This document shows positions 17,905 through 46,661 of a stretch of 64,000 bases of DNA, in pieces. Source of the DNA: a virus; the IMG/VR virus record IMGVR_UViG_3300042868_010462, positions 64,001 through 128,000 of that record; one strand, written 5' to 3'. Numbering within the stretch: position 1 is the first letter of the stretch; each line of letters begins with the position of its first letter. The notes under the pieces were generated by a model. The model was not told the origin of the DNA and ran no database searches. It was given only the letters and a program-made list of their open reading frames with translations. The position numbers and the translations under genes were made by a program.

Positions 17905-17998
17905 TATAATAAATATCCTACAAATCAGTATCTAAAAATCCAAACAAATAAAAAATTAACAGAACTAATAACATTATGTATAACATATAAATTTTTTG

Positions 17999-18075
17999 TA
18001 CCCCCTGAGAGAATCGAACTCTCAATCAAAACATCATCCTAAATGATGCGCGTCTACCTATTCCGCCAAGGGGGT
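17999..18075 (-). tRNA. tRNA-Leu(TAG), short variable region
   Basis: ACCCCCT/AGGGGGT acceptor; CATCA-TTTAGGA-TGATG anticodon arm; TTCGATT T-loop. Confidence 0.85.
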
Positions 18076-18082
18076 ATTTTTG

Positions 18083-18167
18083 TAGTCGGAGCGGGACTCG
18101 AACCCGCACGAACCTTTCGATTCAAAGGATTTTAAGTCCTTCGTGTCTGCCATTTCACCACCCAACC
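18083..18167 (-). tRNA. tRNA-Leu(TAA)
   Basis: AAGGA-CTTAAAA-TCCTT anticodon arm; long variable arm; GGTTCGAGTCC. Confidence 0.92.
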
Positions 18168-18171
18168 AACA

Positions 18172-18300
18172 TTACAATCCAAATCCCACCTTAATGAGAT
18201 AAACCAAACCTAGTACAATTATAGCCAACATCGTACCCGCAAACATCTGTGAAGAAAATTTAATTTGTTCTTCAGTTTTTCCTTGATTTTTGTTTTCCAT
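18172..18300 (-). CDS. Small membrane protein (42 aa)
   Basis: Manually translated MENKNQGK...GTMLAIIVLGLVYLIKVGFGL. Confidence 0.5.
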   Translation of the reverse strand: MENKNQGKTEEQIKFSSQMFAGTMLAIIVLGLVYLIKVGFGL

Positions 18301-18542
18301 CATAAAAATTTTTGAAAGTCCATAAAATGTTTATCAACCCACATTTTTCCTGTTACTTGTGTTGGATGTTCCGTTTTACTTTTATCGAATAATTCAGCCA
18401 TCGTTTTTCTTTCATTATCTAACTCATCCCAAAGATAAGATATCGCCAAGTTTAATTTCCGTTTTTCCTCAGTACCAACCTCGGACTCTCTGACAAGTTT
18501 TTCTAACTTTGCTATAACATTTTGAATGGGGGTGTTTTTCAT
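18300..18542 (-). CDS. Hypothetical protein (likely start MKNTP at 18542)
   Basis: ORF-track frame; its upstream extension overlaps another gene. Confidence 0.6.
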   Translation of the reverse strand: MKNTPIQNVIAKLEKLVRESEVGTEEKRKLNLAISYLWDELDNERKTMAELFDKSKTEHPTQVTGKMWVDKHFMDFQKFL

Positions 18543-18558
18543 CACAACTTTAATTTTT

Positions 18559-18735
18559 TTAATTGTTAATGTCAAGTTCCAACTGACTCTCACTAAATAT
18601 GTGCAACATTCCATTGTCGATTAATTCAGCAACAATTCTTGTGTCACCTGATGTTGTTTGAAATACCGCTACTACGATACCAGGGAACTTATACCCTTTT
18701 GGTTTGTAAACCTTGTCTCCTACTTTGAACTTCAT
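18559..18735 (-). CDS. Small SH3-like protein resembling DfrB/R67 dihydrofolate reductase
   Basis: Manually translated MKFKVGDKVYKPKGYKFPGIVVAVFQTTSGDTRIVAELIDNGMLHIFSESQLELDINN. Confidence 0.5.
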   Translation of the reverse strand: MKFKVGDKVYKPKGYKFPGIVVAVFQTTSGDTRIVAELIDNGMLHIFSESQLELDINN

Positions 18736-18741
18736 TTTTTT

Positions 18742-19146
18742 CTATTTTAAATAATTAACATGTATTGAATGAAAACCCTCACTCCTATTTATTTTCAATT
18801 CCATCCTTGAACCAGTAACATAATCAACCCAAACATTTTCACCAACTTTCACATATGGCTCCAAATCTTTATAAGATTTGTTTAACATCTTGATTGGTCT
18901 GTAAACACTCCAATTTGCACAATATTCTACCCCATTACTTTCAACAAAAATGAACCCATAACTTTCCAATTGTTTCTCGTCCATATACACAATATCATAA
19001 TAATAAGTAAAAATCTTTAACCCATCAATGAATTCTGTTTTGTGATTTGTACCTAGATTTTTTTCAATTTGTTGGGAAGATAAACCCAGTTGTGCAAATG
19101 TTAAAAATGGTAAAAATAATAATAGAAATAAAATCGTTTTTTTCAT
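18742..19146 (-). CDS. Exported hypothetical protein
   Basis: Signal peptide MKKTILFLLLFLPFLTFAQ. Confidence 0.65.
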   Translation of the reverse strand: MKKTILFLLLFLPFLTFAQLGLSSQQIEKNLGTNHKTEFIDGLKIFTYYYDIVYMDEKQLESYGFIFVESNGVEYCANWSVYRPIKMLNKSYKDLEPYVKVGENVWVDYVTGSRMELKINRSEGFHSIHVNYLK

Positions 19147-19160
19147 AATTTTTGTTTTAG

Positions 19161-19247
19161 TACACCCAGTAGGACTCGAACCTACAACGACCTTTCGGTA
19201 CCACTCCGCTTAGAAGGCGGGCATTCTTCCAATTGAATTATGGGTGC
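19161..19247 (-). tRNA. tRNA-Arg(TCT) with unusually long variable arm
   Basis: GCACCCA/TGGGTGT acceptor; CCGC-CTTCTAA-GCGG arm; extra GTGGTACCGAAAGGTC segment. Confidence 0.8.
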
Positions 19248-19350
19248 TAATCGATTGTCTTTCCAATCTGTCAGGTACTTCTATACCAATGAGACGAATT
19301 GTTTTTTTTTCAGTCGCATTACTTTCTGGAACTTCGTCAAAACCAAGTTG

Positions 19351-19431
19351 TAGTCAGTATAGGAATCGAACCCATATAATTTCATCTCAAGTCTAAGACT
19401 CGGAATTACTGTAACCACCCAGTGACTGACT
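19351..19431 (-). ncRNA. tRNA-like element 1 (AGTCAG acceptor family)
   Basis: AGTCAGT/ACTGACT-A acceptor and GGTTCGATTCC T-arm; no canonical D or anticodon arm. Confidence 0.6.
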
Positions 19432-19647
19432 TTCCCCCACCTTGAGATTACTGGTGAGTAGTTATTTCGGTTTTTATGCTATTCAAAAAACCTGTTGGGC
19501 ATCCCCACTGAAAAAAGTCACACATACGAAGGAGGGGGTGTGCTGCCGCCTTTAACCCTAAGAATCGGCATTCCGTTGTCCGATTTGAACGAGTTCATTG
19601 TTAAATGAGTCTTGAACCAAAGACTGCTGAGTATCTCTTACTCATTG
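19432..19647 (-). ncRNA. Candidate structured ncRNA (~215 nt)
   Basis: GC-enriched and non-coding, with several hairpins (GAGTA/TACTC, GTCTT/AAGAC, AATCGG/CCGATT, CACAC/GTGTG, GGTTTTT/AAAAACC, CACC/GGTG). Confidence 0.55.
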
Positions 19648-19754
19648 TAGTCAGGACAGGATTCGAACCTGTAAAATCTTTTATCTGGTTTAGGGTAGGT
19701 TCTATTCCTATCTCCTTCCAAAACATATAGCGTCTACCATTCCGCCACCTGACT
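19648..19754 (-). ncRNA. tRNA-like element 2 (AGTCAG acceptor family)
   Basis: AGTCAGG/CCTGACT-A acceptor, Leu-type D arm GCGGAATGGTAGACGC, ACAGGTTCGAATCCTGT T-arm, ~55-nt non-canonical insert. Confidence 0.7.
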
Positions 19755-19759
19755 AAATT

Positions 19760-20020
19760 TTAATTCAGTGCATCTATTTCCATACAATACAAACCGAACT
19801 CTTGTATTTCATCACCATATCTATACTTGTAAGTTCCCTCATAAATGTCGGGATAACTACTATCATAAGGAAAATAACCCAAGTATTCAACATCCTTATC
19901 TTCAAAGTAGGGTGGTAATCCCATATACTCATCCAAGAGTTGTTTGACCTTTTCAACTGTCGTTGCAGTTAGTACTGGGATTTTATCTTCCCTATCTACT
20001 ATAAGATATATTAGTGCCAT
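19760..20020 (-). CDS. Hypothetical protein
   Basis: 86-aa ORF between tRNA-like elements. Confidence 0.6.
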   Translation of the reverse strand: MALIYLIVDREDKIPVLTATTVEKVKQLLDEYMGLPPYFEDKDVEYLGYFPYDSSYPDIYEGTYKYRYGDEIQEFGLYCMEIDALN

Positions 20021-20391
20021 TGTTGTAAACTTTTATTTATATTAATTTTTGTCAATTTTTTTTTTCTTTTTTTTTTATTTTTTTCTTTTCCTTTTTTTTC
20101 TTTTATTTTTTTTTCTTTTGTTTTTACGACTTCCACCAAATCCATTTCTGGGTCAGATAATTCTTGATAACCAAACATTGAAAAGTCAGAAATATAAGAC
20201 CACCACTTTCCATCAAAAACATATCTTTCATGGTCTATTTTTGGTTTTTTATTGTCAATGCTTTTACCAAAATAAATTCCATCCCATCCATCTCTTTTCC
20301 CTTCTATTGGTGGATTACCCTTGATAATTTTTACTAATCTACCATCTCTACTCTTGTAAGTTTTACCTACTTCTAAAATTATATTTTCCAT
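20011..20391 (-). CDS. Hypothetical protein with Lys-rich tail (likely start MENIIL)
   Basis: LEVGKTYKSRDG N-terminus; the ORF-track extension runs through a tRNA-like element. Confidence 0.6.
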   Translation of the reverse strand: MENIILEVGKTYKSRDGRLVKIIKGNPPIEGKRDGWDGIYFGKSIDNKKPKIDHERYVFDGKWWSYISDFSMFGYQELSDPEMDLVEVVKTKEKKIKEKKGKEKNKKKRKKKLTKININKSLQQWH

Positions 20392-20423
20392 ATTTATAAT
20401 TTTTATTTTTTTAAATAAGTTAG

Positions 20424-20504
20424 TAGTCAGGACAGGATTCGAACTTGTGACGATAAACGCAGATGTGTACCTCATCTTGGCAGCTCCAATTCTGCCACCT
20501 GACT
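20424..20504 (-). ncRNA. tRNA-like element 3 (AGTCAG acceptor family)
   Basis: AGTCAGG/CCTGACT-A acceptor; GTTCGAAT T-loop; AGATG-AGGTACA-CATCT arm lacking U33. Confidence 0.7.
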
Positions 20505-20604
20505 TTGTTTGTTTAAACTTTTCGGTTTTCCTATTCAAAACCTTAACGTCAGGCAACAATCTAAGTGTCAGCCACTACTTGTGAATTATTAGGTGTCACA
20601 ACCA

Positions 20605-20835
20605 TTAGAAATATTTTCTTGTAAGATATTCATCAGTTCCTAAACTTGGTGCGTTGTTATTTTCATCTAAATGAAGAAACATAAATCCTTTGTAAGCGTT
20701 GGCTTCTAATAGAATCTTTTCAATCATTGTGATGATTCCAAGTTTTTCTTCCATCATAATGTTTGGATGGGCTAATTGTTCGTTAGCGAAGTTTTTAATC
20801 ATCTCAACTTGGATTGTTTTTTTCTCTTTAGCCAT
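20605..20835 (-). CDS. Hypothetical protein
   Basis: ORF with TAnnTTTG at 20858-20865. Confidence 0.65.
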   Translation of the reverse strand: MAKEKKTIQVEMIKNFANEQLAHPNIMMEEKLGIITMIEKILLEANAYKGFMFLHLDENNNAPSLGTDEYLTRKYF

Positions 20836-20920
20836 TGTGTTATTGTTTAAGTGTTCACAAATATAGAAATAGATTTTTAATTACACAACCTTTGATGAAT
20901 AATTTTGAGAAAAATATTTG

Positions 20921-20991
20921 AGCGGATAGTTGGTACTGCCCCAACTTATCTAGTTTGGAAGACTAGAACATTACTTTTATGCTATGCCCGC
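20921..20991 (-). tRNA. tRNA-Gly(TCC), non-canonical D and T loops
   Basis: GCGGGCA/TATCCGC-T acceptor; CTAGT-CTTCCAA-ACTAG; T-loop GGCAGTA. Confidence 0.8.
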
Positions 20992-20995
20992 TAAT

Positions 20996-21226
20996 TTACC
21001 TGAGATTCCAAATACCACCAGCAAAACACTTGAAGTCATTGTAACTTGTAACTCTTATAGGATTTTCTTCATATTTCCACCTATTACAAGTTATATAGAT
21101 TTCTCCTGTCCATTTATCCTTCTTGAGAAAGGTATAAATACCATTACGAGATTTGATATGGATTTTATCCCCATTTTTGAGGTTCTTAAACTGAGACAAT
21201 CTTATTTGTTCCATAAGTGATTCCAT
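20996..21226 (-). CDS. Hypothetical protein
   Basis: ORF between tRNAs. Confidence 0.6.
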   Translation of the reverse strand: MESLMEQIRLSQFKNLKNGDKIHIKSRNGIYTFLKKDKWTGEIYITCNRWKYEENPIRVTSYNDFKCFAGGIWNLR

Positions 21227-21243
21227 AGTATTTGAATAAAAAG

Positions 21244-21318
21244 TGGAGCCGGTATGAGGAATCGAACCCCATTATCTTGATTACAAGTCAAGCACATCAC
21301 CACTTATGCTTTACCGGC
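21244..21318 (-). tRNA. tRNA-Thr(TGT)
   Basis: GCCGGTA/TACCGGC-T-CCA; CTTGA-CTTGTAA-TCAAG. Confidence 0.92.
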
Positions 21319-21325
21319 ATTTATA

Positions 21326-21598
21326 TTATCTTCTTTTATAAACATAAGTTATTGTATCACCAATCTTATAAACATCATTTCTCTTGGTTATAACAAACTC
21401 GTCACAATCAGTTGAATAATGATATCTTTTCCCATATTCAATGGTGGATGGTGATTCTGTAACATAAAATGTATCTATTACACATCTTTTAACAATATCC
21501 CCATCTTCAATTTCATTATAGTTTGTTCTATTTAGAATTGAAGCTAATAAAACAAATGAAACAAAAAATAAAAACAAACAAGGAATTAAATATTTCAT
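21326..21598 (-). CDS. Hypothetical membrane-anchored protein
   Basis: N-terminal hydrophobic helix. Confidence 0.55.
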   Translation of the reverse strand: MKYLIPCLFLFFVSFVLLASILNRTNYNEIEDGDIVKRCVIDTFYVTESPSTIEYGKRYHYSTDCDEFVITKRNDVYKIGDTITYVYKRR

Positions 21599-21600
21599 CT

Positions 21601-21849
21601 TTAAACTTTTAACAAATAAATTAATAATGAACCCAAAGTATAACCAATACTGGAAGCCAAGGCCATCTTGATTCTTTCATTCCAATTCTTTGATTCAACC
21701 ATATAACCAACAAATGGTAATCCCAAAAATGGCCCGATACAAGCCCAAAAAATCATCATAAAATCTCTATCAGCAACCGTTGCAATATACATAGTTGCGG
21801 CCAACTCAATAACAAATGATGCGATACCAATTATAATATATTTTTTCAT
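21601..21849 (-). CDS. Small three-TM membrane protein
   Basis: Hydrophobic segments. Confidence 0.6.
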   Translation of the reverse strand: MKKYIIIGIASFVIELAATMYIATVADRDFMMIFWACIGPFLGLPFVGYMVESKNWNERIKMALASSIGYTLGSLLIYLLKV

Positions 21850-22442
21850 AAATGTTTAATTACCCAATCCGCAAACTTCTTTTGTCCTGATAAACTTACA
21901 TGAACCCCATCACCAGCATCTTTGAATGTTACAGATGTATCCTTTGGAATTATAAGACAATTTTTCAAACCTGTCTTTGGGTCAACCATCAATTTTTGAA
22001 ATTCAACATACCTTGCTCTACATCTATCAGTGGTCTCAGTACCATATACAGTTCTAACCATAACTTTGATGGGGTCATATCCAACAATAACAATCGGTTT
22101 AATCCCCCTCCTATTACAAGAATCAACCATCATCTGTATATTATTAACGGCACCCTGTAAGTTCACATAAGAAAAAGCATCATTACAACCCCCATAAATA
22201 AACACACTGGTAAACATTGAATCTCTCTTCAAATGGTCGTTAAGTGTTAATCTCATCCAATCCGTTCTCTTTCCACCACTTGATTTATTTAAACTCTGAT
22301 AACCGAATTCCTTGGCTACCATATCTTGCCAACCACCAGTATAACAAGTCAAACTATCACCGATGAATAATACCCTCAAAGGTGGGGTTGAAAAGGAAGT
22401 TAATAAAATAACACATAACAATAATAAACTAATTTTCTTCAT
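21846..22442 (-). CDS. Exported SGNH/GDSL hydrolase
   Basis: FIGDSLT, GGCND and DGVH motifs; signal peptide. Confidence 0.85.
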   Translation of the reverse strand: MKKISLLLLCVILLTSFSTPPLRVLFIGDSLTCYTGGWQDMVAKEFGYQSLNKSSGGKRTDWMRLTLNDHLKRDSMFTSVFIYGGCNDAFSYVNLQGAVNNIQMMVDSCNRRGIKPIVIVGYDPIKVMVRTVYGTETTDRCRARYVEFQKLMVDPKTGLKNCLIIPKDTSVTFKDAGDGVHVSLSGQKKFADWVIKHL

Positions 22443-22455
22443 AAAACAATTTTTT

Positions 22456-22533
22456 TGGTGGAGACAGTGAGAATCAAACTCACCTCACAGATATTGCAAA
22501 TATCCATCGCCAAGTCTTGGTACATGTGCCCCC
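22456..22533 (-). tRNA. tRNA-Ala(TGC), atypical D arm
   Basis: GGGGGCA/TGTCTCC-A-CCA with G3:U70; GGATA-TTTGCAA-TATCT. Confidence 0.82.
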
Positions 22534-22541
22534 ATTTTTAT

Positions 22542-23063
22542 TTATAACCCAATTTCCTCCAAAGGTAAAACCTCAAAGAAATATTTACAACCAACATCTG
22601 TTATATATTCAAAAACATCCTTATAACAATCTTTATTGAAAAAATTACTTAAGACATAATAGTACTCAACTTGGATACCGATTGGACTAAACAATTTTTT
22701 ATATTGTCTTTTTTTGAAATTACAAGTTTGTAATTTCTCATCAACAGAACCGGCACCATTTTGGTATTTCTTTTCAATTATGTAGATGGTATTCCCCACT
22801 AATATTGCAGCATCAGGTAAAAGTTTTTTACTGATAATCGTATTGTGGTCAATATTATATCTACTTAACAATTTTTTGTACAGACCATATTTCTCAAAAT
22901 ATTCACCGACAATTATACCATTTTTTACAATTTGGTCTTGATTATCCATCACATAATCACTTTGTTCCACTAACAATTTTTTTAGGTGTGTTGTAGCTTC
23001 AAAATGTAATCCGTTAACATTTGTGTTTGCACCCCCACCACTTTTGTTTGGCGTTCTATTCAT
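22542..23063 (-). CDS. PD-(D/E)XK nuclease-like protein
   Basis: LLPD...IIEKKYQ...GSVDEKLQT. Confidence 0.7.
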   Translation of the reverse strand: MNRTPNKSGGGANTNVNGLHFEATTHLKKLLVEQSDYVMDNQDQIVKNGIIVGEYFEKYGLYKKLLSRYNIDHNTIISKKLLPDAAILVGNTIYIIEKKYQNGAGSVDEKLQTCNFKKRQYKKLFSPIGIQVEYYYVLSNFFNKDCYKDVFEYITDVGCKYFFEVLPLEEIGL

Positions 23064-23079
23064 AGTTTTTCTTTTTTTG

Positions 23080-23164
23080 TGGTGGGAATGGAGGGATTCG
23101 AACCCCCTCAGCTAATACAAATGATTTACAGTCATCCCCGACTCTCCAGCTTCGGCGCACTCCC
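23080..23164 (-). tRNA. tRNA-Tyr(GTA)
   Basis: GATGA-CTGTAAA-TCATT; GGTTCGAATCC; encoded CCA. Confidence 0.9.
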
Positions 23165-23175
23165 ATTATAAATTG

Positions 23176-23250
23176 ATGCAGGAACGGGAGTCGAACCCGT
23201 ATGGTACGGCTTATGAGACCGAGCTGGAACCACTTCCAGTCCATCCTGCA
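23176..23250 (-). tRNA. tRNA-Met(CAT), atypical D arm
   Basis: TGCAGGA/TCCTGCA acceptor; CGGT-CTCATAA-GCCG. Confidence 0.8.
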
Positions 23251-23259
23251 TTGTGTTTG

Positions 23260-23331
23260 ACGCAAAGAAAGGAATCGAACCTTTTACCTTTGGGTTATGA
23301 GCCCAATGTGCAACCACTACACTTCTTTGCA
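23260..23331 (-). tRNA. tRNA-fMet(CAT)
   Basis: Three G:C pairs in the anticodon stem (TTGGG-CTCATAA-CCCAA); weak 1:72 pair. Confidence 0.85.
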
Positions 23332-23339
23332 TATATTTG

Positions 23340-23411
23340 TAGCCCGTAGGGGAGTCGAACCCCTCTTGCAAGAATGAAAATCTTGAGTCCTAGCCGATAG
23401 ACGAACGGGCC
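23340..23411 (-). tRNA. tRNA-Glu(TTC)
   Basis: GGCCCGT/ACGGGCT; CAAGA-TTTTCAT-TCTTG. Confidence 0.92.
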
Positions 23412-23422
23412 ATATTTGTTTG

Positions 23423-23496
23423 CGAGCTATAGGGGATTCGAACCCCTGGTCTTCAGCGTGACAAGCTGAAATGTTAAACCCCTACACCAATAGCTC
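23423..23496 (-). tRNA. tRNA-Asp(GTC)
   Basis: GAGCTAT/ATAGCTC-G; TCAGC-TTGTCAC-GCTGA. Confidence 0.92.
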
Positions 23497-23518
23497 TTTT
23501 GTATTAATTCTTCCCTCT

Positions 23519-23542
23519 ATGTCAATGAACTTTACAAAGTTA
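23519..23542 (-). promoter_or_regulatory. TAnnTTTG promoter plus boxA-like GTTCATTGACAT ahead of tRNA-Asp
   Basis: TAACTTTG at 23535-23542; GTTCATTGACAT at 23519-23530, identical to 29354-29365. Confidence 0.65.
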
Positions 23543-23549
23543 AACAATC

Positions 23550-24029
23550 TTATCCAATTTTCCAAGCACCATAGATAACTTTTTTTCTCTGTAGTGCATC
23601 TTCTGTGTTTCCAATTACAACTCCATCTTTGATTGTGAAAGCATGACCCTTGATTGTAACAATGTAAGTTCCTTTTGAATACTTTTCCAAGAACTTAGCT
23701 GTTGTCATATTTCTCAAAACATTTCTTCCTTTCACCTCAACCCAATATGCCATTTGAATATCTTCTCTAATTGGTGTAACACCTTTACGATTGAACTTTA
23801 TCTGTTTTGACGCAAGTGTATTCATAGTTAAACCAAAGAGTGCAGTCCCTTGTCTATTTTTTCTACCAAAAACCTCTGCCACTTTTTTGTGAGCATAGTC
23901 GTAAGTAACTCCAAACGCTGAAGCAAAGGCTCTGACGACACAATCGTCTTTCTCACTTTGAGCTAACTTCGATTCTGCAATCCCTTTGATGGCGACTGAT
24001 GATGATATGTATGGTGTTTTCGTTTTCAT
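23550..24029 (-). CDS. Hypothetical phage protein (DCVVRA...H motif)
   Basis: 159-aa ORF; TAnnTTTG at 24034-24041. Confidence 0.7.
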   Translation of the reverse strand: MKTKTPYISSSVAIKGIAESKLAQSEKDDCVVRAFASAFGVTYDYAHKKVAEVFGRKNRQGTALFGLTMNTLASKQIKFNRKGVTPIREDIQMAYWVEVKGRNVLRNMTTAKFLEKYSKGTYIVTIKGHAFTIKDGVVIGNTEDALQRKKVIYGAWKIG

Positions 24030-24073
24030 ATTACAAAGTTACAAAACCATTTTTAATTTCCAAACTTTGTGAT

Positions 24074-24109
24074 AAAAAAAAATCCATCTTTTTTTACGAA
24101 GATGGATTT
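24074..24109 (-). terminator. Attenuator-type intrinsic terminator after leader A
   Basis: AAATCCATCTT-loop-AAGATGGATTT-T-run; the 5' arm is complementary to GGAGATGG in the leader. Confidence 0.8.
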
Positions 24110-24136
24110 GACATTATTAACACTCAAAACTTAAGT

Positions 24137-24208
24137 TCATACCATCTCCATCCGAGGATTTCTACCCTCAGCTCCAGTCGTTAAGTCCATATAGAGATTG
24201 CGTTTCAT
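24137..24208 (-). CDS. Leader peptide A, MKRNLYMDLTTGAEGRNPRMEMV
   Basis: 23-aa ORF 27 nt upstream of the terminator; composition matches the downstream tRNA array. Confidence 0.75.
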   Translation of the reverse strand: MKRNLYMDLTTGAEGRNPRMEMV

Positions 24209-24267
24209 TGAATTTCTTACTATTTTTTTATTAAATATAATGATATAACGGAAAAGTGTCAAGTATG

Positions 24268-24579
24268 TTACAAAAAAGATGAAATAATTTGTGCTACTTT
24301 ATATCCTGTGAAGGCTCCCAATGCCGCAGAACCTGGTAAAACAAAGAACTTACCGAATAAACTTTCATATTTTGACCTATTAACGATGTATGAAATTAGG
24401 ATATAATAAAGAAAGAAGTTAATCAGTACAGCAATATCGATTTCCTTGGCCATAAAGACAACAATCGAGTTTCCAAAGAACCCCCAACTGAAGTTTATTA
24501 ATGTCTCCCTGATTAATTCCCAAACTGATGTATTGGCATCAGCAACCTTAATTTCCCTTGTAAATAAATTATTTTTCAT
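24268..24579 (-). CDS. Membrane protein
   Basis: Three hydrophobic segments. Confidence 0.65.
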   Translation of the reverse strand: MKNNLFTREIKVADANTSVWELIRETLINFSWGFFGNSIVVFMAKEIDIAVLINFFLYYILISYIVNRSKYESLFGKFFVLPGSAALGAFTGYKVAQIISSFL

Positions 24580-25085
24580 CCTATAAAATCGTCAAATCCG
24601 TTGTTACTTAAAAAATCGTTATCTTCATCTATTTCTCTTATCTCGAACTCAAAACTTGATACATTACAAACTACATCTTTAGTGAATGTTTCGTGTATAT
24701 AATCAAAGTCATCTGGAGATATTTGAACTTGTTCATCTTTAAATAATTTGAAAAGTTCCTTTGTATTTCTGTAAAGATTTGGGTATTGATAAGTTTTCAA
24801 AATACCATCCATTTCGAATACTTCAAATCTTTTGTAAAAATTATCGTTGTACATTAGAATATGTTCCTGAGCCCACTCATTAACAACTTGAAGAATGAAT
24901 GTCTTTAAACCCTGCATACAAGCTACCCTATAGTCCTCATATTGTTGTTCAACAGTTAAACTACCAATCTCAACATCATCAACCTCTTCTTCATATTTGG
25001 CAATTGTATCCAAGGCCAACATCTGTAATTCATCCCAATTTGTTTGATGTATTTTATAAAAGTTTACAACTACCATTTCTTTCAT
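24576..25085 (-). CDS. Hypothetical protein
   Basis: 169-aa ORF. Confidence 0.65.
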   Translation of the reverse strand: MKEMVVVNFYKIHQTNWDELQMLALDTIAKYEEEVDDVEIGSLTVEQQYEDYRVACMQGLKTFILQVVNEWAQEHILMYNDNFYKRFEVFEMDGILKTYQYPNLYRNTKELFKLFKDEQVQISPDDFDYIHETFTKDVVCNVSSFEFEIREIDEDNDFLSNNGFDDFIG

Positions 25086-25105
25086 TATTAAAGTGTTATT
25101 TAATT

Positions 25106-25747
25106 TTATTCCTTCGAATCTGTATCGTAAAACATTAAGTCAGAGTCTTCGGTTGCCCATTTATTATGTCCTTCACAATTATAATAATCTAAATTAACTA
25201 GATAATCAGGTTTCTCAGGAAAATCTTTTGTGACAAAAGAAGGTTCATTCCATCTTATTCTATTGTTGGGTTGTAAGGCAATTTGTCCATTATCTAATAA
25301 GATGATGTGATGACACTTGTGTTCCATAGGGTCTTCTGACAATGTTAAATCAGTATTCATATCACTTGAACCCCAGTTAATTGTGCCAAAATAATTTCCA
25401 TCATACCATTTCTTATCTTTCATAAAAACTGAAACCCGCATCCCATATACAAAACTAAGTTGAATGAGGGAAAAGTTATATGAAAAACAATTCCATAATT
25501 GCAGAAAATGAAAAGACAAATCAGGATTTGGTGTCTCAGGTTTTGTCAATAGTGCATGAGATGGTAATTTGTCTCTCATTACACCATTGTTCAATAAAAC
25601 CTGAAACAAAACCGCCTGGTTTGGCATACACCGAATCGAAGTAACAATTCCTTCTGTAAACTCACCAAATCCTTTTTGGTGCTGATACATATATTCATTT
25701 CGAACATAAACTTTAAGTGGGAAAAAATTACTTTCGATATAAGCCAT
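25106..25747 (-). CDS. Hypothetical phage protein
   Basis: 213-aa ORF (VYVRNEY, LQLWNCFS, HKCHH, QPNNRIRW). Confidence 0.7.
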   Translation of the reverse strand: MAYIESNFFPLKVYVRNEYMYQHQKGFGEFTEGIVTSIRCMPNQAVLFQVLLNNGVMRDKLPSHALLTKPETPNPDLSFHFLQLWNCFSYNFSLIQLSFVYGMRVSVFMKDKKWYDGNYFGTINWGSSDMNTDLTLSEDPMEHKCHHIILLDNGQIALQPNNRIRWNEPSFVTKDFPEKPDYLVNLDYYNCEGHNKWATEDSDLMFYDTDSKE

Positions 25748-25749
25748 AA

Positions 25750-26070
25750 TTAACTTGTTGGTATGTCATTTGAGCCATACTCTCTTATTAAATAGTCGGT
25801 AAAATCTTCTACACTTTCAACATTGAACTCAACTTCTTCGTGCCAGATTTTTTTATCAACATCATCATATAACCACCAGCCAACTAAGTCCTGAATCCAT
25901 CCGAATTGTTCGTCTTGTTTTTTTCTGAGGAGGGTCGGAATACTTTTTTCAAGTTGAGGAGTGGTGTTGTTAAGCTCAAGTAAATCAACTCCCAAACCAT
26001 AGAGCCTATGTATCTTTTCATCGTATTCTTTAATTTTTAACAAAGTTTCGATTATGTATTCTCGTACCAT
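25750..26070 (-). CDS. Hypothetical protein
   Basis: 106-aa ORF. Confidence 0.65.
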   Translation of the reverse strand: MVREYIIETLLKIKEYDEKIHRLYGLGVDLLELNNTTPQLEKSIPTLLRKKQDEQFGWIQDLVGWWLYDDVDKKIWHEEVEFNVESVEDFTDYLIREYGSNDIPTS

Positions 26071-26078
26071 TATAAGTA

Positions 26079-26267
26079 TTATTTAAGTTGTTTGAAATAT
26101 TTTGGAATTATTATCATACTACTGATGTAAAATGCAATAAACATTACACCATAAACTAATCCCTCGTTGAAATAGATACCCAAAACATATTTACTAATCA
26201 ATAGCTGGGGTATCATAATCAAAAAGAAAACTAAAAAAGAAAAGAACACAGTTACAAATGTTTTCAT
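26079..26267 (-). CDS. Small two-TM protein
   Basis: Hydrophobic 62-aa ORF. Confidence 0.55.
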   Translation of the reverse strand: MKTFVTVFFSFLVFFLIMIPQLLISKYVLGIYFNEGLVYGVMFIAFYISSMIIIPKYFKQLK

Positions 26268-26296
26268 CTCATTTTATTTTGTGGTTAAATAATTTG

Positions 26297-26369
26297 CAGG
26301 TCCCCAAGGATTCGAACCCTGACCGGATAGGTTGGAGCTATCAATGCTAAGCCATTACACTAGAGACCC
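26297..26369 (-). tRNA. tRNA-Trp(CCA)
   Basis: GATAG-CTCCAAC-CTATC; GGTTCGAATCC. Confidence 0.9.
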
Positions 26370-26404
26370 ATATATTTGCTTACTATTACAAAGATAAGAA
26401 AAAA

Positions 26405-27139
26405 TTAAAACTTTTTATATTTTTTATCCCAATTTTCAATCCTTTTTAAAAGTTCTTCCATTGTTATTGACGAATTATCCTTTTTTATTGAATTATCTGA
26501 GAATAATAATAGATTACAATTCGCAGGATGGGATATAATCTTTGGGTTAATCTTATTTCGAAAACCATCCATCACAGAATACATATGGTCTTTACTTACC
26601 CCTTTCAAATTATTCCGTTTGTTTGTTGGTGAATACCATCCATATTGTTCAACTAAAGATAAATCAAATTCATCTTTAAAATCTTGGATGTCAAACTTAA
26701 AAAAACAAGATGGTCTATAATACTCGTAATATGTTAATTTACAATCATTACATATTATTTTCAACTTTTCAGTTACCTCATTAATTGAACAAATCTTACA
26801 AATCTTTTTAGTTTTAATCTTTTCCTTTCTGGGCTTGTTTTTTAAGGTCTCTGAAATCTTTTTTTTAGTTTCTTCAGTCAGTTTTCTATTTCTATTATTA
26901 TACTGTATAGCACAAGAAGATGAACAAAAGGTATTAGGTTTACTAAAATATTTTTCAAATTCCTTTTTACAATTTTTACAAACTTGATTTTCCTTGTATA
27001 TAACTTTTAAATTCAATCTACCCATTTTACAATTGATAGATTTGTAAGTCGTTCCCATAATTTCAGCAATATCACCAGGTCTATAACCCTTCTCGACAAG
27101 TGAAACTAATTGTTTTATATTTTCATCATTCCATTTCAT
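26405..27139 (-). CDS. Putative HNH-type homing endonuclease
   Basis: HTH-like N-terminus, CxxC..FCSSSC, LTEETKKKISE (NUMOD3-like), SKDH...HPANC...N..K. Confidence 0.7.
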   Translation of the reverse strand: MKWNDENIKQLVSLVEKGYRPGDIAEIMGTTYKSINCKMGRLNLKVIYKENQVCKNCKKEFEKYFSKPNTFCSSSCAIQYNNRNRKLTEETKKKISETLKNKPRKEKIKTKKICKICSINEVTEKLKIICNDCKLTYYEYYRPSCFFKFDIQDFKDEFDLSLVEQYGWYSPTNKRNNLKGVSKDHMYSVMDGFRNKINPKIISHPANCNLLLFSDNSIKKDNSSITMEELLKRIENWDKKYKKF

Positions 27140-27191
27140 ATATATAAATATCTAAGAAATGAGGAAAAGTAAAGAATCGAACTTTTTTTTG

Positions 27192-27265
27192 AGGTCGGGG
27201 AGGGAATCGAACCCCCCTAAAAATGATTTTGCAGGTCATTGCCTAAACCACTCGGCCACCCGACC
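27192..27265 (-). tRNA. tRNA-Cys(GCA)
   Basis: GGTCGGG/CCCGACC-T; CTGCAAA loop. Confidence 0.88.
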
Positions 27266-27283
27266 TTAATATTTCTTTTTTAT

Positions 27284-27410
27284 CCCCCAACTTCACCCCA
27301 CTCGTCAGTGGGGGAGTGGTTAGGTTGAGTCCGAACTTATACCTTGGGCTATTCGTTGGACAAAAAGACCACAGCAAGTGAGCAGTTCTAATGGGATGCT
27401 TCGTGGTACA
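27284..27410 (-). ncRNA. Candidate structured ncRNA between tRNA-Lys and tRNA-Cys
   Basis: GC-enriched and non-coding; ACCAC/GTGGT, AGCA/TGCT and CCCCACT-GACG-AGTGGGG stems. Confidence 0.45.
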
Positions 27411-27417
27411 TTGAATG

Positions 27418-27492
27418 TGACCCTGGTGAGACTCGAACTCACGCTCCCTAAATTAAAAGTTTAGTGCTTTAAACCAACTAAGCCACAGGGTC
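27418..27492 (-). tRNA. tRNA-Lys(TTT)
   Basis: GACCCTG/CAGGGTC-A; CTAAA-CTTTTAA-TTTAG. Confidence 0.9.
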
Positions 27493-27493
27493 A

Positions 27494-27799
27494 TTAATCA
27501 AATTTTCTATTAGGATTCATTCCTCTCTTATAGTTCACACACAATCTATCTTTATCATCAAAGAAAGTATTGACCATTGGTGTGCCCAATTTTATACCAC
27601 AACCATCAGGTGCGAAACTACATAAACTTCTTGCACGACCATCCAAGTTTACATCTTCCAATAATCTCCACTCAATTCCTGTCTCCACATCATAAACATA
27701 ATCACCATCTCTCAATACATAAAGTTGGTTGTATCTGTTTCTCATTGATTCATAAAACTTCGCTGACATAGTGTTCATTAAAATTAAAACTTTCAACAT
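27494..27799 (-). CDS. Hypothetical protein
   Basis: ORF between tRNAs; start uncertain. Confidence 0.55.
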   Translation of the reverse strand: MLKVLILMNTMSAKFYESMRNRYNQLYVLRDGDYVYDVETGIEWRLLEDVNLDGRARSLCSFAPDGCGIKLGTPMVNTFFDDKDRLCVNYKRGMNPNRKFD

Positions 27800-27822
27800 A
27801 ATTCGGTTGATTGAATGGTTAA

Positions 27823-28035
27823 CTAATCCTGTCTAATTACATTCCCAAATCTACACAAAAGATTCATATATTTTACTGTTTCCATCAAATAATTTTGATT
27901 TTTATCCATTAAAATAACAACCTCCATATCAATAATTGCTCTTACCTGAACCTCCTTGTTGTTGGGATTGTCATCACCAAAATCAATAATTAAGTTGTCA
28001 CCAACTTTAAACTCACCAATTTTTACCTTTTCCAT
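27823..28035 (-). CDS. Hypothetical protein
   Basis: 70-aa ORF. Confidence 0.55.
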   Translation of the reverse strand: MEKVKIGEFKVGDNLIIDFGDDNPNNKEVQVRAIIDMEVVILMDKNQNYLMETVKYMNLLCRFGNVIRQD

Positions 28036-28050
28036 AATAAATATTTTTTG

Positions 28051-28125
28051 TTGTTCCGGTGAGGCTCGAACTCACGACTTCTACGGTATCAGCATAGTAC
28101 TCTAAACCAACTGAGTTACGGAACA
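28051..28125 (-). tRNA. tRNA-Ile(GAT)
   Basis: TGTTCCG/CGGAACA; CTATG-CTGATAC-CGTAG. Confidence 0.9.
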
Positions 28126-28132
28126 ATGTTTG

Positions 28133-28206
28133 TGGTTCCATCAGGATTTGAACCTGAAACCCCTCCGTTATGAGCGGAAAGCTCTAACCACTTGAGCTAT
28201 AGAACC
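28133..28206 (-). tRNA. tRNA with CAT anticodon, probably Ile2 (lysidine, reads ATA)
   Basis: GGTTCTA/TGGAACC-A; TCCG-CTCATAA-CGGA; Ile2-like body (TAGCTCAAGTGGTTAGAGC), adjacent to tRNA-Ile; identity inferred. Confidence 0.75.
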
Positions 28207-28220
28207 TTAAAAAAAATTTG

Positions 28221-28292
28221 TATGGGTGACCGGATTTGAACCGATGACCACTAATTCCCAAAATTAGCATTCTACCTCTGAACTACACCCAT
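28221..28292 (-). tRNA. tRNA-Pro(TGG)
   Basis: CTAAT-TTTGGGA-ATTAG; GGTTCAAATCC. Confidence 0.88.
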
Positions 28293-28295
28293 ATA

Positions 28296-28445
28296 TTAAA
28301 CAATTAAACCATATATAATTCCACATAGAAGAACAATTAGAAAAATAAGTCCTACTAAGAATAGGTCTGAGTTTCGTTTGAAGTGAGACAAAACTAAGAA
28401 TAATATTCCAATTATCAAAAACAAAAGACCAATTAATAATAACAT
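28296..28445 (-). CDS. Small two-TM protein (49 aa)
   Basis: Manually translated MLLLIGLLFLIIGILFLVLSHFKRNSDLFLVGLIFLIVLLCGIIYGLIV; fits between two tRNAs. Confidence 0.5.
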   Translation of the reverse strand: MLLLIGLLFLIIGILFLVLSHFKRNSDLFLVGLIFLIVLLCGIIYGLIV

Positions 28446-28462
28446 AATTTAATTTTTTTTTG

Positions 28463-28556
28463 CGGAGAACAGAGGTCTCGAACCCACACACCAGCTCATC
28501 ACCGATGACATCTGATTTTCAAGACCAGGCCGATACCAATTTCGGTTGACTTTTCC
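28463..28556 (-). tRNA. tRNA-Ser(TGA), imperfect acceptor and T stems
   Basis: CTGGT-CTTGAAA-ATCAG; long variable arm; G73. Confidence 0.7.
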
Positions 28557-28564
28557 GTATTGTT

Positions 28565-28641
28565 TGGTGGTATGATGGGACTCGAACCCACACATACATC
28601 ATCCACAATGATGTCCCTCTACCAATTGGGGTACATACCAC
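28565..28641 (-). tRNA. tRNA-His(GTG)
   Basis: G-1:C73 pair; CATCA-TTGTGGA-TGATG. Confidence 0.92.
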
Positions 28642-28649
28642 ATATAGTT

Positions 28650-28725
28650 TGGTGGTGATGATTGGAATCGAACCAATATTAAACGATTTTCAGTCGTTCG
28701 CCTTGACCAACTTGGCAACATCACC
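28650..28725 (-). tRNA. tRNA-Phe(GAA)
   Basis: GGTGATG/CATCACC-A-CCA; AACGA-CTGAAAA-TCGTT. Confidence 0.92.
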
Positions 28726-28735
28726 ATAAAGTTTT

Positions 28736-28799
28736 GAGTAAGTATCCACCACGTTTAAGGCTGGCTGTGGACAGTGCTACCTACGACCTTTCCTTACTC
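28736..28799 (-). ncRNA. Candidate 64-nt structured RNA at the start of a tRNA transcript
   Basis: GAGTAAG/CTTACTC closing stem; inner TCCAC/GTGGA; begins just after TAACTTTG (28805-28812). Confidence 0.45.
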
Positions 28800-29034
28800 T
28801 TCTACAAAGTTACCATTTTTTTTTAATTTCCAAATATCTTTGTAAGTTTTTTTTAAAGTGGTCAAAATCCACCACTTTAAGTTATTACTACACAATCCAT
28901 AAAATGGTAAAAACCAATTAATGTAAAACTTGAACAATAAATTATTTTAAAAAAAATTTTGAATTTTACTTGGATGTATGGTATTTGTTTTGTTTCTTTG
29001 TTAAACATTATTTCACTACTAAAAATTTAAAATT

Positions 29035-29157
29035 ATGAACACACAATTGAGCACAACTTCAAAAATTATTGTTGGAATTATTTCTGTTGTATTATTATAC
29101 AACGCTACTTACCTACTAGGAATTGTTGTAGGTTTTTTACAAGGTATTTTGGGTTAA
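29035..29157 (+). CDS. Small hydrophobic protein (40 aa), opposite strand to the tRNA array
   Basis: MNTQLSTTSKIIVGIISVVLLYNATYLLGIVVGFLQGILG, followed by a long hairpin. Confidence 0.45.
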   Translation: MNTQLSTTSKIIVGIISVVLLYNATYLLGIVVGFLQGILG

Positions 29158-29264
29158 AATTATTCTTTTAAAAGTAGAATTCGGATTTTATTTAAAAGTT
29201 CGAATTCTACTTTTATTATCTCTATTTCATTATACCAGGTAATAAAATCCCTCACTTTAGAATG

Positions 29265-29337
29265 TTCCCCCTGATGGAATCGAACCACCATCCTCAGAAT
29301 CAAAATCTGATGTAATCAACCATTATACCAAGAGGGA
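29265..29337 (-). tRNA. tRNA-Gln(TTG)
   Basis: TCCCTCT/AGGGGGA; TCAGA-TTTTGAT-TCTGA. Confidence 0.9.
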
Positions 29338-29353
29338 GTATTATTTTACCACG

Positions 29354-29365
29354 ATGTCAATGAAC
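29354..29365 (-). promoter_or_regulatory. boxA-like element GTTCATTGACAT
   Basis: Directly after the attenuator T-run and before tRNA-Gln; exact copy at 23519-23530. Confidence 0.6.
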
Positions 29366-29397
29366 AAAAAAAACCCTGAACTTTATGGTTCAGGGTT
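29366..29397 (-). terminator. Attenuator-type intrinsic terminator after leader B
   Basis: AACCCTGAAC-loop-GTTCAGGGTT-T-run; the 5' arm is complementary to ATGGTTGGGG...TTCTA in the leader. Confidence 0.82.
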
Positions 29398-29421
29398 CTA
29401 CTATCAAAAAATTATTAACAA

Positions 29422-29529
29422 TTATAATTCTATAGAATTTCCCCAACCATTACAAACACTCGGCTTTGACCAACAATTGCTAAATTGTGGCTGAACCGAT
29501 ATGTTAATATGTTTGAAGAAATTTTTCAT
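29422..29529 (-). CDS. Leader peptide B, MKNFFKHINISVQPQFSNCWSKPSVCNGWGNSIEL
   Basis: 35-aa ORF 24 nt upstream of the terminator; composition matches the downstream tRNA array. Confidence 0.78.
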   Translation of the reverse strand: MKNFFKHINISVQPQFSNCWSKPSVCNGWGNSIEL

Positions 29530-29576
29530 TTTTTTAGTTTGTTTATAAGTATTGCGAAATTAATAAAAAGTTTGGC

Positions 29577-29890
29577 TCAGAATGATTTTTTTCCAAAGTT
29601 GCAATTTTGTTTAGTTTGCTGAACTCATTCTTTATAACCTAAATTGACAGGATAGTGTTTGGTCAAATTTACAAGTTTTGATGTTTAAAGATTGCTGAAT
29701 CTATCCCTCGTTCTATATAACGTAAATATAATTAAAAAGTTTCAAAAAGAAAAGAAAATTGGAAAAATTGGTTTCAGTATGGGTTTTTTGTTGAAGTTTA
29801 TTTCCGTGCGATTGGAAAAATGAGTCAACAACTCAGCCTTGTGTTCGAATGATTCAATATTTGTATCTTAGTTTGCTGGAATCATACTTT
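29577..29890 (-). ncRNA. Three related stem-closed RNA-like elements with a CAGCAA motif (29577-29633, 29648-29708, 29774-29890)
   Basis: AGAATGA/TCATTCT, GGATAG/CTATCC and AGTATG/CATACT closing stems, each followed by TT(C)CAGCAA and ending in CTG. Confidence 0.6.
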
Positions 29891-29913
29891 ATAAACCAAT
29901 TTTTCCTTTTCTC

Positions 29914-45521: not shown

Positions 45522-45620
45522 ATTTTGTTCGTTTTTGTTTGAATTATATTGTTTATTTTTTATGTAGTCAATTCTACTCACAAACATTTGTTATAAAAAA
45601 TTAATCCAAACCTTTTTAAC

Positions 45621-45726: not shown

Positions 45727-45762
45727 ATGGACATCAATCTAAACAACATATACAATTTTTAA
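45727..45762 (+). CDS. Asn-rich leader peptide MDINLNNIYNF
   Basis: 11 codons, 4 of them Asn, immediately before a terminator and the AsnRS-like gene. Confidence 0.65.
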   Translation: MDINLNNIYNF

Positions 45763-45767
45763 TTCAT

Positions 45768-45797
45768 AACCCCCTTATTATTAGGGGGCTTTTTTTT
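45768..45797 (+). terminator. Intrinsic terminator in the 5' leader of the AsnRS-like gene
   Basis: CCCCCT-tattatt-AGGGGG-c-TTTTTTTT. Confidence 0.75.
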
Positions 45798-45827
45798 ATA
45801 AACCAATAAACAAAATTAATAACAAAA

Positions 45828-46661
45828 ATGAAAAACACACAAATCTACAACGAGTTAGTACAAAAGATGAGAAACTTTTTCCAAGCCAAAGGTTTCTTGG
45901 AGGTTCCAACACAATCTAGACTTTCAATCCTTGCCGCTTGTGAAAATCCACATAGCATCACAAAATTTGAATATTCAGGTGAAATTTGGCCTTTACCACA
46001 AACAGGTCAAATGTGGTTGGAATATGAATTACTTCTAAATCCTGAATTTCCTGGTGTATATTGTATCTCCACATCATACAGACAAGAAGCAAACCCAATC
46101 CCTGGTCGTCACGACTTAATCTTCCCTATGTTCGAAGTTGAAACAAAAGGAACTAAAGAAGATATGGTTAAACTTCAAGCGGAAATGTTAGAATATTTGG
46201 GATTTGATATTCCAATAGTTGTAGATTATAATGAACTTTGTGAAAAATACGGAACTGAAATCCTTGAAGCTGAACACGAAACAAAAATGTGGAATGAAAT
46301 CGGTGATTCTATCTCACTTCAAAACTTCCCATTGAGAACAAATCCTTTTTGGAATATGCAAAAGGGTGAAGGTGACAAATTCCAAAAGGTTGATGTTATC
46401 CTTTTCGGTCAAGAAACAATCGGTTCTGCTGAAAGAAGTTGTGATAAAGAAAGTATGAAAGAAATGTTCTACACAATCGAAGGTGGGAACTACTCAGCAA
46501 AACTTTTTGAATTATTTGGTAAGGAAAGAGTAGAAAAAGAATTGGAACATTTCTTATCTTTGGATTTCTTCCCAAGATTTGGATGGGGTTGTGGCCTTAC
46601 AAGATTGGCAAGAGCTTATGAATTGAATCTTACAAAAAAACTTACTGAAGCAATCATTTAA
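45828..46661 (+). CDS. Class II aaRS catalytic-core protein (AsnRS-derived, archaeal-type asparagine synthetase-like)
   Basis: GFLEVPT (motif 1), SYRQE...RH...FPMFE (motif 2), ETIGSAER, GWGCGLTRL (motif 3); no anticodon-binding domain. Confidence 0.75.
   Translation: MKNTQIYNELVQKMRNFFQAKGFLEVPTQSRLSILAACENPHSITKFEYSGEIWPLPQTGQMWLEYELLLNPEFPGVYCISTSYRQEANPIPGRHDLIFPMFEVETKGTKEDMVKLQAEMLEYLGFDIPIVVDYNELCEKYGTEILEAEHETKMWNEIGDSISLQNFPLRTNPFWNMQKGEGDKFQKVDVILFGQETIGSAERSCDKESMKEMFYTIEGGNYSAKLFELFGKERVEKELEHFLSLDFFPRFGWGCGLTRLARAYELNLTKKLTEAII

Follow-up and report, generated by a model that had tools for sequence, protein, structure and literature searches.

The tRNA blocks and their leader modules

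The window analysed here is a 64,000-nucleotide stretch of DNA (positions 64,001 to 128,000 of the IMG/VR virus record IMGVR_UViG_3300042868_010462) from a 148-kb viral record of lake-water metagenomes, with a G+C content of approximately 30%. Every tRNA gene of the window is carried on the minus strand, and the genes fall into two blocks, designated A and B. Each block is headed by a short open reading frame (ORF) and an intrinsic terminator; the two ORFs are referred to as leader A and leader B, and the part of each ORF that appears to list the amino acids of the block behind it is referred to as its roster. An earlier note, made from the letters of the DNA, had proposed that the two tRNA arrays are gated by attenuators written in the amino acids of their own tRNAs, and the short ORF and terminator that it described at the head of each array were both recovered.

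Using ARAGORN with default settings, 19 tRNAs were identified in the window, and four further tRNA or tRNA-like genes were retrieved using Rfam and relaxed ARAGORN settings (Table 1). The gap between the blocks is 2.8 kb, and protein genes are interspersed in both of them. The order of the tRNAs was conserved among the relatives, in which block B comprises Gln, Phe, His, Ser(UGA), Asn, Arg(ACG), Ser(GCU), Pro, Ile2, Ile, Lys, Val, Cys, and Trp, and block A comprises Asp, Leu, Glu, Met, Met, Tyr, Gly, Ala, Thr, Arg(UCU), and Leu. The tRNAs for Asn, Arg(ACG), Ser(GCU), and Val have been lost from block B of the window and are kept in block B of the relatives. The Arg tRNAs of the relatives are split over both blocks (ACG in B and UCU in A), and a Val or Gln tRNA is occasionally found in both. 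The absence of any amino acid common to both blocks, which was stated in the earlier note, applies to the window and does not extend to the relatives. The Ala tRNA in its list of 21 was not found in the window and is present in block A of the relatives. As the completeness estimates of the relatives were 19-48%, they were judged to be fragments of phages of roughly 300 kb.

Table 1. Positions of the tRNA blocks, leader modules, and adjoining features in the window.
Feature	Positions	Strand	Remarks
tRNA block A	17998-23496	-	Asp, Glu, Met, Met, Tyr, Thr, Gly(UCC), Tyr-like, 107-nt tRNA-like, Arg(UCU), Leu(UAA), Leu(UAG); ARAGORN and Rfam
Possible tRNA(UUA)	19350-19431	-	Relaxed ARAGORN
tRNA-like gene, 107 nt	19648-19754	-	Rfam/relaxed ARAGORN
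Second Tyr-like tRNA gene	20423-20504	-	ARAGORN
Gly(UCC) tRNA	20921-20991	-	Rfam/relaxed ARAGORN
TAACTTTG box and second GTTCATTGACAT copy	23519-23542	-	Just upstream of tRNA-Asp; motif copy at 23519-23530
Host-type promoter	24034-24066	-	TTTG, 19 nt, TAACTTTG; directly after terminator A; for 159-codon ORF (23550-24029)
Intrinsic terminator A	24074-24109	-	
Leader A ORF	24137-24208	-	23 codons; stop codon 24137-24139
Region 2 of leader A	24142-24153	-	Antiterminator strand; 3' end of ORF
Roster of leader A	24161-24196	-	Codons 5-16
Promoter-like site of leader A	24234-24262	-	TTGACA, 17 nt, TATATT; 11/12 matches
tRNA block B	26296-29337	-	Gln, Phe, His, Ser(UGA), Pro, Ile2(CAU), Ile, Lys, Cys, Trp; ARAGORN and Rfam
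Ser(UGA) tRNA	28462-28555	-	Rfam/relaxed ARAGORN
tRNA-Gln(UUG)	29264-29337	-	First gene of block B; sole tRNA directly behind terminator B
Motif GTTCATTGACAT	29354-29365	-	12 nt; spacer between terminator B and tRNA-Gln
Intrinsic terminator B	29366-29399	-	12-bp stem, 6-nt loop, 8-T run
Leader B ORF	29422-29529	-	35 codons including ATG; stop codon 29422-29424
Region 2 of leader B	29433-29451	-	Antiterminator strand within ORF; codons 27-33
Roster of leader B	29470-29526	-	Codons 2-20; also 5' arm and tip hairpin of leader stem
465-codon gene and hairpins	29574-31311	-	Pfam DUF2828 and DUF7788; PHROG 850 'RNA-binding protein'

The relatives used for leader B were retrieved through the sequence of tRNA-Gln, so that the leader itself played no part in their selection. 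All 43 contigs found in this way (19 viral and 24 metagenome contigs) carried leader B and its terminator, and the frame was open in each of them, giving 16 peptide variants of 28-35 codons with in-frame length changes. Leader B, the terminator, and tRNA-Gln stayed together even where a different gene was located upstream. The stem of terminator B ranged from -14.5 to -17.1 kcal/mol across the variants, compensatory changes were present in the stems of both terminators, and the tip hairpin of leader B (29470-29490) was maintained through A-U, G-U, and G-C changes. Both leader regions were strongly structured (z = -5.4 for B). No TAnnTTTG box was found by a box scan of the spacer between terminator B and tRNA-Gln, and this tRNA gene has no recognisable promoter of its own. 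Exact copies of the motif GTTCATTGACAT occurred only twice in the 64 kb, each approximately 20-25 nt ahead of the tRNA that opens its block, and were conserved in the relatives; the motif could be part of a precursor 5' leader, a processing signal, or a promoter element. A TATATTTA box was shared by the regions before some leader B variants.

The start of leader A is an internal ATG of a 41-codon frame that begins with TTG. Its length and stop position were identical in nine of nine variants, with TGA and TAA interchanged. Leader A was found in every relative with block A, directly before tRNA-Asp in two of them, and was missing in more distant relatives of the upstream gene, where no tRNAs follow. 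The earlier note's proposal implied that the leaders should be conserved in relatives, and this was found for leader B in every anchored contig and for leader A wherever block A follows. Both hexamers of the promoter-like site before leader A were conserved in all relatives while the adjoining genes diverged. The roster of leader A overlaps region 1 (24191-24198), the segment at the ORF front that can pair with region 2, and part of an inner hairpin (24154-24169). A compensatory change from G-C to A-U was observed in this hairpin, and the compensatory change in the stem of terminator A was observed in a divergent relative. In the metatranscriptome contig of one relative, the leader A stretch (24094-24223 of the window) was replaced by 126 other letters while both flanks aligned, and thus further divergent variants of leader A exist.

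Several tRNA subclusters are preceded by promoters of the Bacteroidota kind (TTTG, approximately 19 nt, TAnnTTTG), referred to as host-type promoters, which points to a Bacteroidota-type host. One of them follows terminator A directly, and the same promoter type sits between terminator A and tRNA-Asp in the two relatives that have no protein gene between these elements. The four TAnnTTTG sites that the earlier note had entered as a caveat (23535, 24034, 26389, and 28805) all exist. Two promoter classes were observed in the region, a sigma-70-like one (TTGACA/TATATT) before leader A (24234-24262) and the host-type one (24034-24066 and 28805-28840), and the promoters of the tRNA subclusters and of the 159-codon gene were near-identical (TTTGGAAA ... 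TAnnTTTG).

Composition of the leaders and pairing with the terminators

The earlier note had counted all nine amino acid types of array A and none of Q/F/H/S/I/C/W in leader A, and all nine types of array B and none of D/Y/T/A/R in leader B, and both counts proved exact. Asn and Val of leader B, which were left unexplained in that first reading, are matched by tRNAs for both amino acids in block B of the relatives.

In leader B, the restriction to block-B types was observed in the front part of the ORF. Within codons 2-20, 166 of 171 residues were block-B types in the nine viral-contig variants; all residues were of these types in five variants, and the remaining four had 17-18 such residues among 19. 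Beyond codon 20, block-B types accounted for 57 of 104 residues, equal to the proteome background of 0.55. The roster contains 13 variable columns, at which 31 of 34 states were within the block-B set, and seven further variants from metagenomes had 18-19 block-B types among 19 residues, with all new states within the set. Codons 2-20 use Ile, Val, Phe, Trp, Asn, Gln, and Ser. Residues of similar chemistry are nearly excluded: there is no Met, Tyr, Asp, or Glu, Leu occurs once in one variant, and Thr occurs only at two variable columns. This split is not explained by the chemistry of the residues. At the codon level, strict wobble rules make 18 of the 19 roster codons in the window cognate to an ancestral block-B tRNA. 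Together these codons cover 12 of the 14 tRNA species, among them both codon classes of Ser and both Ile tRNAs, and no other site in the six frames of the whole window reached this match.

For leader A, codons 5-16 were block-A types at 12 of 12 positions in eight of the nine variants and at 11 of 12 in the ninth. In a variant with 69% identity, all seven changed residues remained in the block-A set (p = 0.006). Over the whole of leader A, approximately 75% of the residues belong to this set.

Against a null of proteome composition, the p values were 8e-6 for leader B and 7e-4 for leader A, and against open-frame sequences obtained by permuting the bases of each leader they were 3e-4 and 2e-3, respectively. 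When all six frames of the window were scanned, 26 of 27,793 windows were B-like (approximately 1e-3) and 18 of 40,692 were A-like (approximately 4e-4). The numbers of variable columns at codon positions 1, 2, and 3 were 8, 11, and 12 in leader B and 4, 4, and 6 in leader A. As the substitutions are spread about equally over all codon positions, it is the composition rather than the peptide sequence that is conserved. The third-position-biased substitution expected of a small-protein gene was not seen, and the leader belonged to no PHROG family.

The complementarity between the terminator 5' arm and the 3' end of the ORF, which the earlier note had pointed out for both arrays, was borne out by duplex prediction. 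The best partner of the 5' arm of terminator B was the 3' part of the leader B ORF (-14.7 kcal/mol), an energy equalled in 3 of 300 shuffles. Likewise, the 5' arm of terminator A paired best with the 3' part of the leader A ORF (-13.1 kcal/mol; 8-10 bp), and 5 of 300 shuffles equalled this. In every variant of both leaders, the best partner was the homologous site of the ORF, with energies of -9 to -15 kcal/mol, and the best-duplex site corresponding to region 2 of leader B was homologous in nine of nine viral-contig variants. For the antiterminator helix of leader B, 92% of the cells were paired, compared with 19-56% when the partner was slid along the sequence; five of its eight pairs vary, on one side only, and no double compensatory change was found. 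In the divergent leader A, a change in the terminator was matched both in region 2 and in the 3' arm of the terminator. When the nascent RNA of leader A was cut at the terminator loop, region 2 paired with the 5' arm of the terminator.

Region 2 can also be held by the front of the ORF. In leader B, it was paired with the ORF front in every unconstrained fold; the partners differed between variants and no column-wise alignment was obtained. A fixed-column helix between regions 1 and 2 of leader B was tried as a candidate and could not be defined. In leader A, region 2 was sequestered by the ORF front in the full-length folds of the main clade.

With permissive thresholds, Rfam assigned leader A, leader B, and the hairpin elements beside leader B to no known family, and the features of a T-box (specifier loop, T-box sequence, and stem I) gave no match at the same thresholds. 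Of the features of an attenuator, a conserved short ORF, a downstream intrinsic terminator, and an antiterminator segment exclusive with the terminator were present in both leaders. Regulatory codons matched to the regulated genes were present at the codon level in B and at the amino-acid level only in A. The placement of leader and terminator between the sole promoter and the regulated genes was true of tRNA-Gln only, and not of the arrays.

Probable attenuation of tRNA transcription and alternative readings

The anatomy of the two modules, their conservation, their linkage to the heads of the blocks, and the match of their composition suggest that both are ribosome-mediated, trp-type transcription attenuators that add transcription into the tRNA blocks; we assign this reading a probability of approximately 0.6. 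Judged from the sequence comparisons, the case for attenuation appears strong for leader B and moderate for leader A. The phage would probably raise the transcription of its tRNAs when the codons of a block are decoded slowly.

In the proposed mechanism, a short transcript would begin just upstream of each leader. With smooth translation or with none, region 2 would be covered by the ribosome or held by the ORF front (region 1), and with region 2 unavailable the terminator would form and transcription would stop. If a ribosome lingered in the roster, region 2 would be free as the 5' arm of the terminator emerges; the two would pair, and RNA polymerase would read on, reaching tRNA-Gln and block B in the one case and heading for tRNA-Asp and block A in the other. 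The outcome would be a homeostatic feedback on the supply of the tRNAs of the block, both of the host and of the phage, on top of a basal level provided by the internal host-type promoters. We infer that the leaders are translated, that ribosomes stall in them, that polymerase reads through, and how large the response would be. Relatives of the region were represented among the metatranscriptome contigs of four runs, and such contigs show neither transcript ends nor read-through.

A number of results weigh against this reading. The limits of the rosters (codons 2-20 of B and codons 5-16 of A) were picked post hoc, after inspection of the data; the whole-ORF null tests do not depend on these limits. 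The strict codon match of leader A was 11 of 22, which was equalled at 94 other sites in the window, and Lys, Asn (twice), and Pro are retained in leader A. Some of the Arg codons in leader B variants are AGA, which is read by a block-A tRNA. The earlier note had expected the leader codons to track the tRNA content of the arrays, and this was not supported: a lineage in which block B consists of only Gln, Pro, Ile2, Cys, and Trp retains the full roster of leader B, and the leaders did not follow recent tRNA losses in the window either, where four block-B tRNAs are gone. Each roster codon is present only one to five times, and a stall would therefore require the tRNA to be in very short supply. 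When a ribosome halts near the end of roster B, region 1 may be free to pair with region 2 again, and the pairing of regions 1 and 2 of leader A was not seen in the divergent variant. In equilibrium folds with the ribosome footprint masked, a check named in the earlier note, the terminator persisted in all cases and was never displaced; any switch must therefore be kinetic, as we take it to be in the E. coli trp leader from the energies there. No promoter of leader B was recognised. Conserved host-type promoters (TTTG/TAnnTTTG) are located after terminator A and before tRNA-Phe, host-type promoters also precede other subclusters, and protein genes break up both arrays. Owing to these internal promoters and interrupting genes, the leaders can add to the expression of the arrays and cannot gate it, in agreement with the caveat of the earlier note that attenuation would be an extra input.

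It seems unlikely that the modules are instead independent small genes that produce a small RNA or a micropeptide, are individually equipped with a promoter and a terminator, and are unrelated in function to tRNA supply. The tRNAs would then be transcribed from their own promoters, and the composition match and the pairing would be coincidental or by-products of structure and base composition. The canonical host-type promoters after terminator A and before tRNA-Phe would suit such an arrangement, as would the conserved promoter-like site that leader A has to itself and an intergenic region that is more conserved than the adjoining genes, as in a small RNA gene. The strong structure of both leader regions, the ordinary strict codon match of leader A, and the persistence of unchanged leaders where tRNAs were lost point in the same direction, and base composition does account for part of the bias (p from 8e-6 to 3e-4 for B and from 7e-4 to 2e-3 for A). 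However, the restriction to block types is confined to the front of leader B (97% compared with 55% behind it) and is also found in variants retrieved blind to the leader; it separates chemically similar residues according to block membership and survives shuffling of the leader's own nucleotides. The near-equal substitution over codon positions is unlike that of a peptide conserved in sequence, the terminator arm finds its partner at a homologous site in every variant of leaders A and B, tRNA-Gln lacks a recognisable promoter of its own, and a like layout is found in the unrelated phage phiCbK (see below). Improbable, too, is a conditional terminator that senses something else, such as translation capacity or ribosome availability during infection, or a trans-acting factor (which might be an uncharged tRNA, a phage protein, or the RNA-binding protein encoded next to leader B), with the roster being secondary. 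The conserved alternative pairings agree with a sensor of this kind, a codon present only once would report poorly on a particular amino acid, the leaders did not change when tRNAs were lost, and leader B adjoins a gene of an RNA-binding-protein family with repeated hairpin RNAs. A general sensor, however, needs no block-specific codons, and the codon sets of the two leaders are nearly complementary and match their own blocks. Furthermore, neither the T-box nor any other known riboswitch family was matched in Rfam, and the leader B module is unchanged where another gene separates it from that of the RNA-binding protein.

The earlier note had assigned the leaders a particular purpose, namely surveillance against host anticodon nucleases, in which each leader acts as an OR gate that induces the replacement tRNAs upon cleavage of any host tRNA. 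Phage tRNAs can replace host tRNAs that are cleaved by defence nucleases, and such a gate is compatible with the anatomy of an attenuator and with the rosters. We nevertheless regard it as quite improbable: nothing in the sequence points to nucleases, a shortage arising from phage-driven host shut-off or from a mismatch in codon usage would act alike, the basal promoters already express most of the arrays, and the roster also lists tRNAs that the phage no longer carries.

Attenuation by a leader peptide in response to slow decoding may be compared with known systems. In enterobacteria, leaders that respond to a single amino acid are known from trp, his, leu, and phe, and multi-amino-acid leaders from thr (Thr and Ile) and ilvGMEDA (Leu, Val, and Ile). 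The modules described here resemble these leaders in having a short ORF of the translated type with regulatory codons in its front part, a segment that pairs with either the ORF front or the 5' arm of the terminator, and a terminator that is thermodynamically stronger than the antiterminator. They differ in that tRNA genes rather than biosynthetic enzymes lie behind the terminator, and in that 9 to 12 amino acids are listed, most of them by one or two codons, where the enterobacterial leaders have runs of one to three amino acids. They are also phage-borne, apparently with a Bacteroidota-type host, and unlike the amino-acid operons they have further promoters downstream. The E. coli pheST attenuator controls phenylalanyl-tRNA synthetase through Phe codons only. 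It is similar in that a part of the translation apparatus is subject to leader-peptide attenuation and that charged tRNA is sensed through the speed of decoding; here, the tRNAs themselves rather than a synthetase would be controlled, and many of them are listed. T-box riboswitches are also conditional terminators that respond to the state of specific tRNAs, but they bind uncharged tRNA directly and require no translation, whereas the modules described here have a conserved ORF and no T-box match in Rfam.

In the Caulobacter phage phiCbK, a short ORF ends approximately 35 nt before an annotated terminator, which is followed by the tRNA block Phe, Val, Ile, Ile, Val, Gln, and Gln. The core of this ORF uses codons for Phe and Ile together with codons for Gln and Val, the last two in both of their codon classes, and the ORF contains a near-copy of the 3' arm of the terminator. 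The design fits (a mini-ORF in the codons of the block, a terminator with a partner in the ORF, and a tRNA block), although the sequence is unrelated and the host differs. An annotated 45-residue gene before the Pro-Lys-Leu-Ser block of the same phage has block types at only about half of its residues. DNA searches of isolated phages retrieved no close relative of the leader regions. A 16-nt spacer pattern searched for in viral contigs yielded mostly chance matches and was discarded, and six real relatives were filtered out of them. A broader proposal is that roster leaders are a general and convergent form of closed-loop control of tRNA supply in tRNA-rich phages, with one translated test track per block (that of B listing as many as 12 amino acids, with Ser and Ile each represented by both isoacceptor classes), recurring in unrelated Caulobacter and Bacteroidota phages. 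We put this proposal forward tentatively, at slightly less than even odds.

Codon-usage compensation, decay of host tRNAs, and escape from tRNA-cleaving defences have been proposed as reasons for the many tRNAs of large phages, and why they are carried and how they are regulated are still debated. Literature searches retrieved no description of leader-peptide control of phage tRNA genes. If the attenuation reading is true, the phage would gauge the speed of decoding codon by codon and tune the transcription of its tRNAs accordingly. Attenuation would be extended from amino-acid and synthetase genes to tRNA genes, the number of regulatory amino acids would be extended from one to three to a dozen, and the leaders would represent a compact natural sensor of tRNA availability. 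The unusual pattern in which composition is kept while sequence is free is a useful signature for finding such leaders elsewhere.

Neighbouring genes and further features

Three hairpin elements of one design are located after the 465-codon gene that adjoins leader B. Each consists of a stem of 6-7 bp, a conserved single strand around TTCAGCAA, a variable loop, the complementary stem, and TG, and the stems differ between the copies with their complementarity kept. The same hairpins flank the homologous gene in relatives whose protein identity is only 44-57% (L011:3600-3970, L012:2470-2630, and L014:3680-3975), and riverine metatranscriptome contigs cover both the 465-codon gene and the hairpin elements. 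A PDB sequence search gave no significant match for the 465-residue protein, leaving the description 'Ro60/Y-RNA-like' unconfirmed, and literature searches for DUF2828 retrieved nothing useful.

Within block A, the 107-nt tRNA-like gene (19648-19754) and the Tyr-like gene (20423-20504) have their acceptor and T arms in common, and the former may carry an insertion. The anticodon UUA of the candidate tRNA at 19350-19431 would read the stop codon UAA. Inside block B, a 244-codon ORF (26405-27139, minus strand) had weak matches to NUMOD3 and to helix-turn-helix and homing-endonuclease-like sequences, and mobile endonuclease genes may explain the interruption of the arrays and the differences between relatives. 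An element of approximately 64 nt with a 7-bp terminal stem (28736-28799, minus strand) is located between the host-type promoter and tRNA-Phe and was conserved in all relatives; it is tRNA-like in appearance, yet it was called by neither ARAGORN nor Rfam.

Outside the blocks, the window encodes a full-length Hsp70/DnaK (43656-45587, minus strand; Pfam HSP70, 5e-258). On the plus strand (45727-46661), an 11-codon ORF with four Asn codons ends just before a strong terminator, and approximately 40 nt further along begins a 277-codon gene whose product has the core of a class II aminoacyl-tRNA synthetase (Pfam tRNA-synt_2, 1e-15). From its sequence, this arrangement resembles an Asn attenuator of the classical type placed before an AsnA-like gene and, if true, would mean that leader-peptide attenuation is used elsewhere by the same phage.

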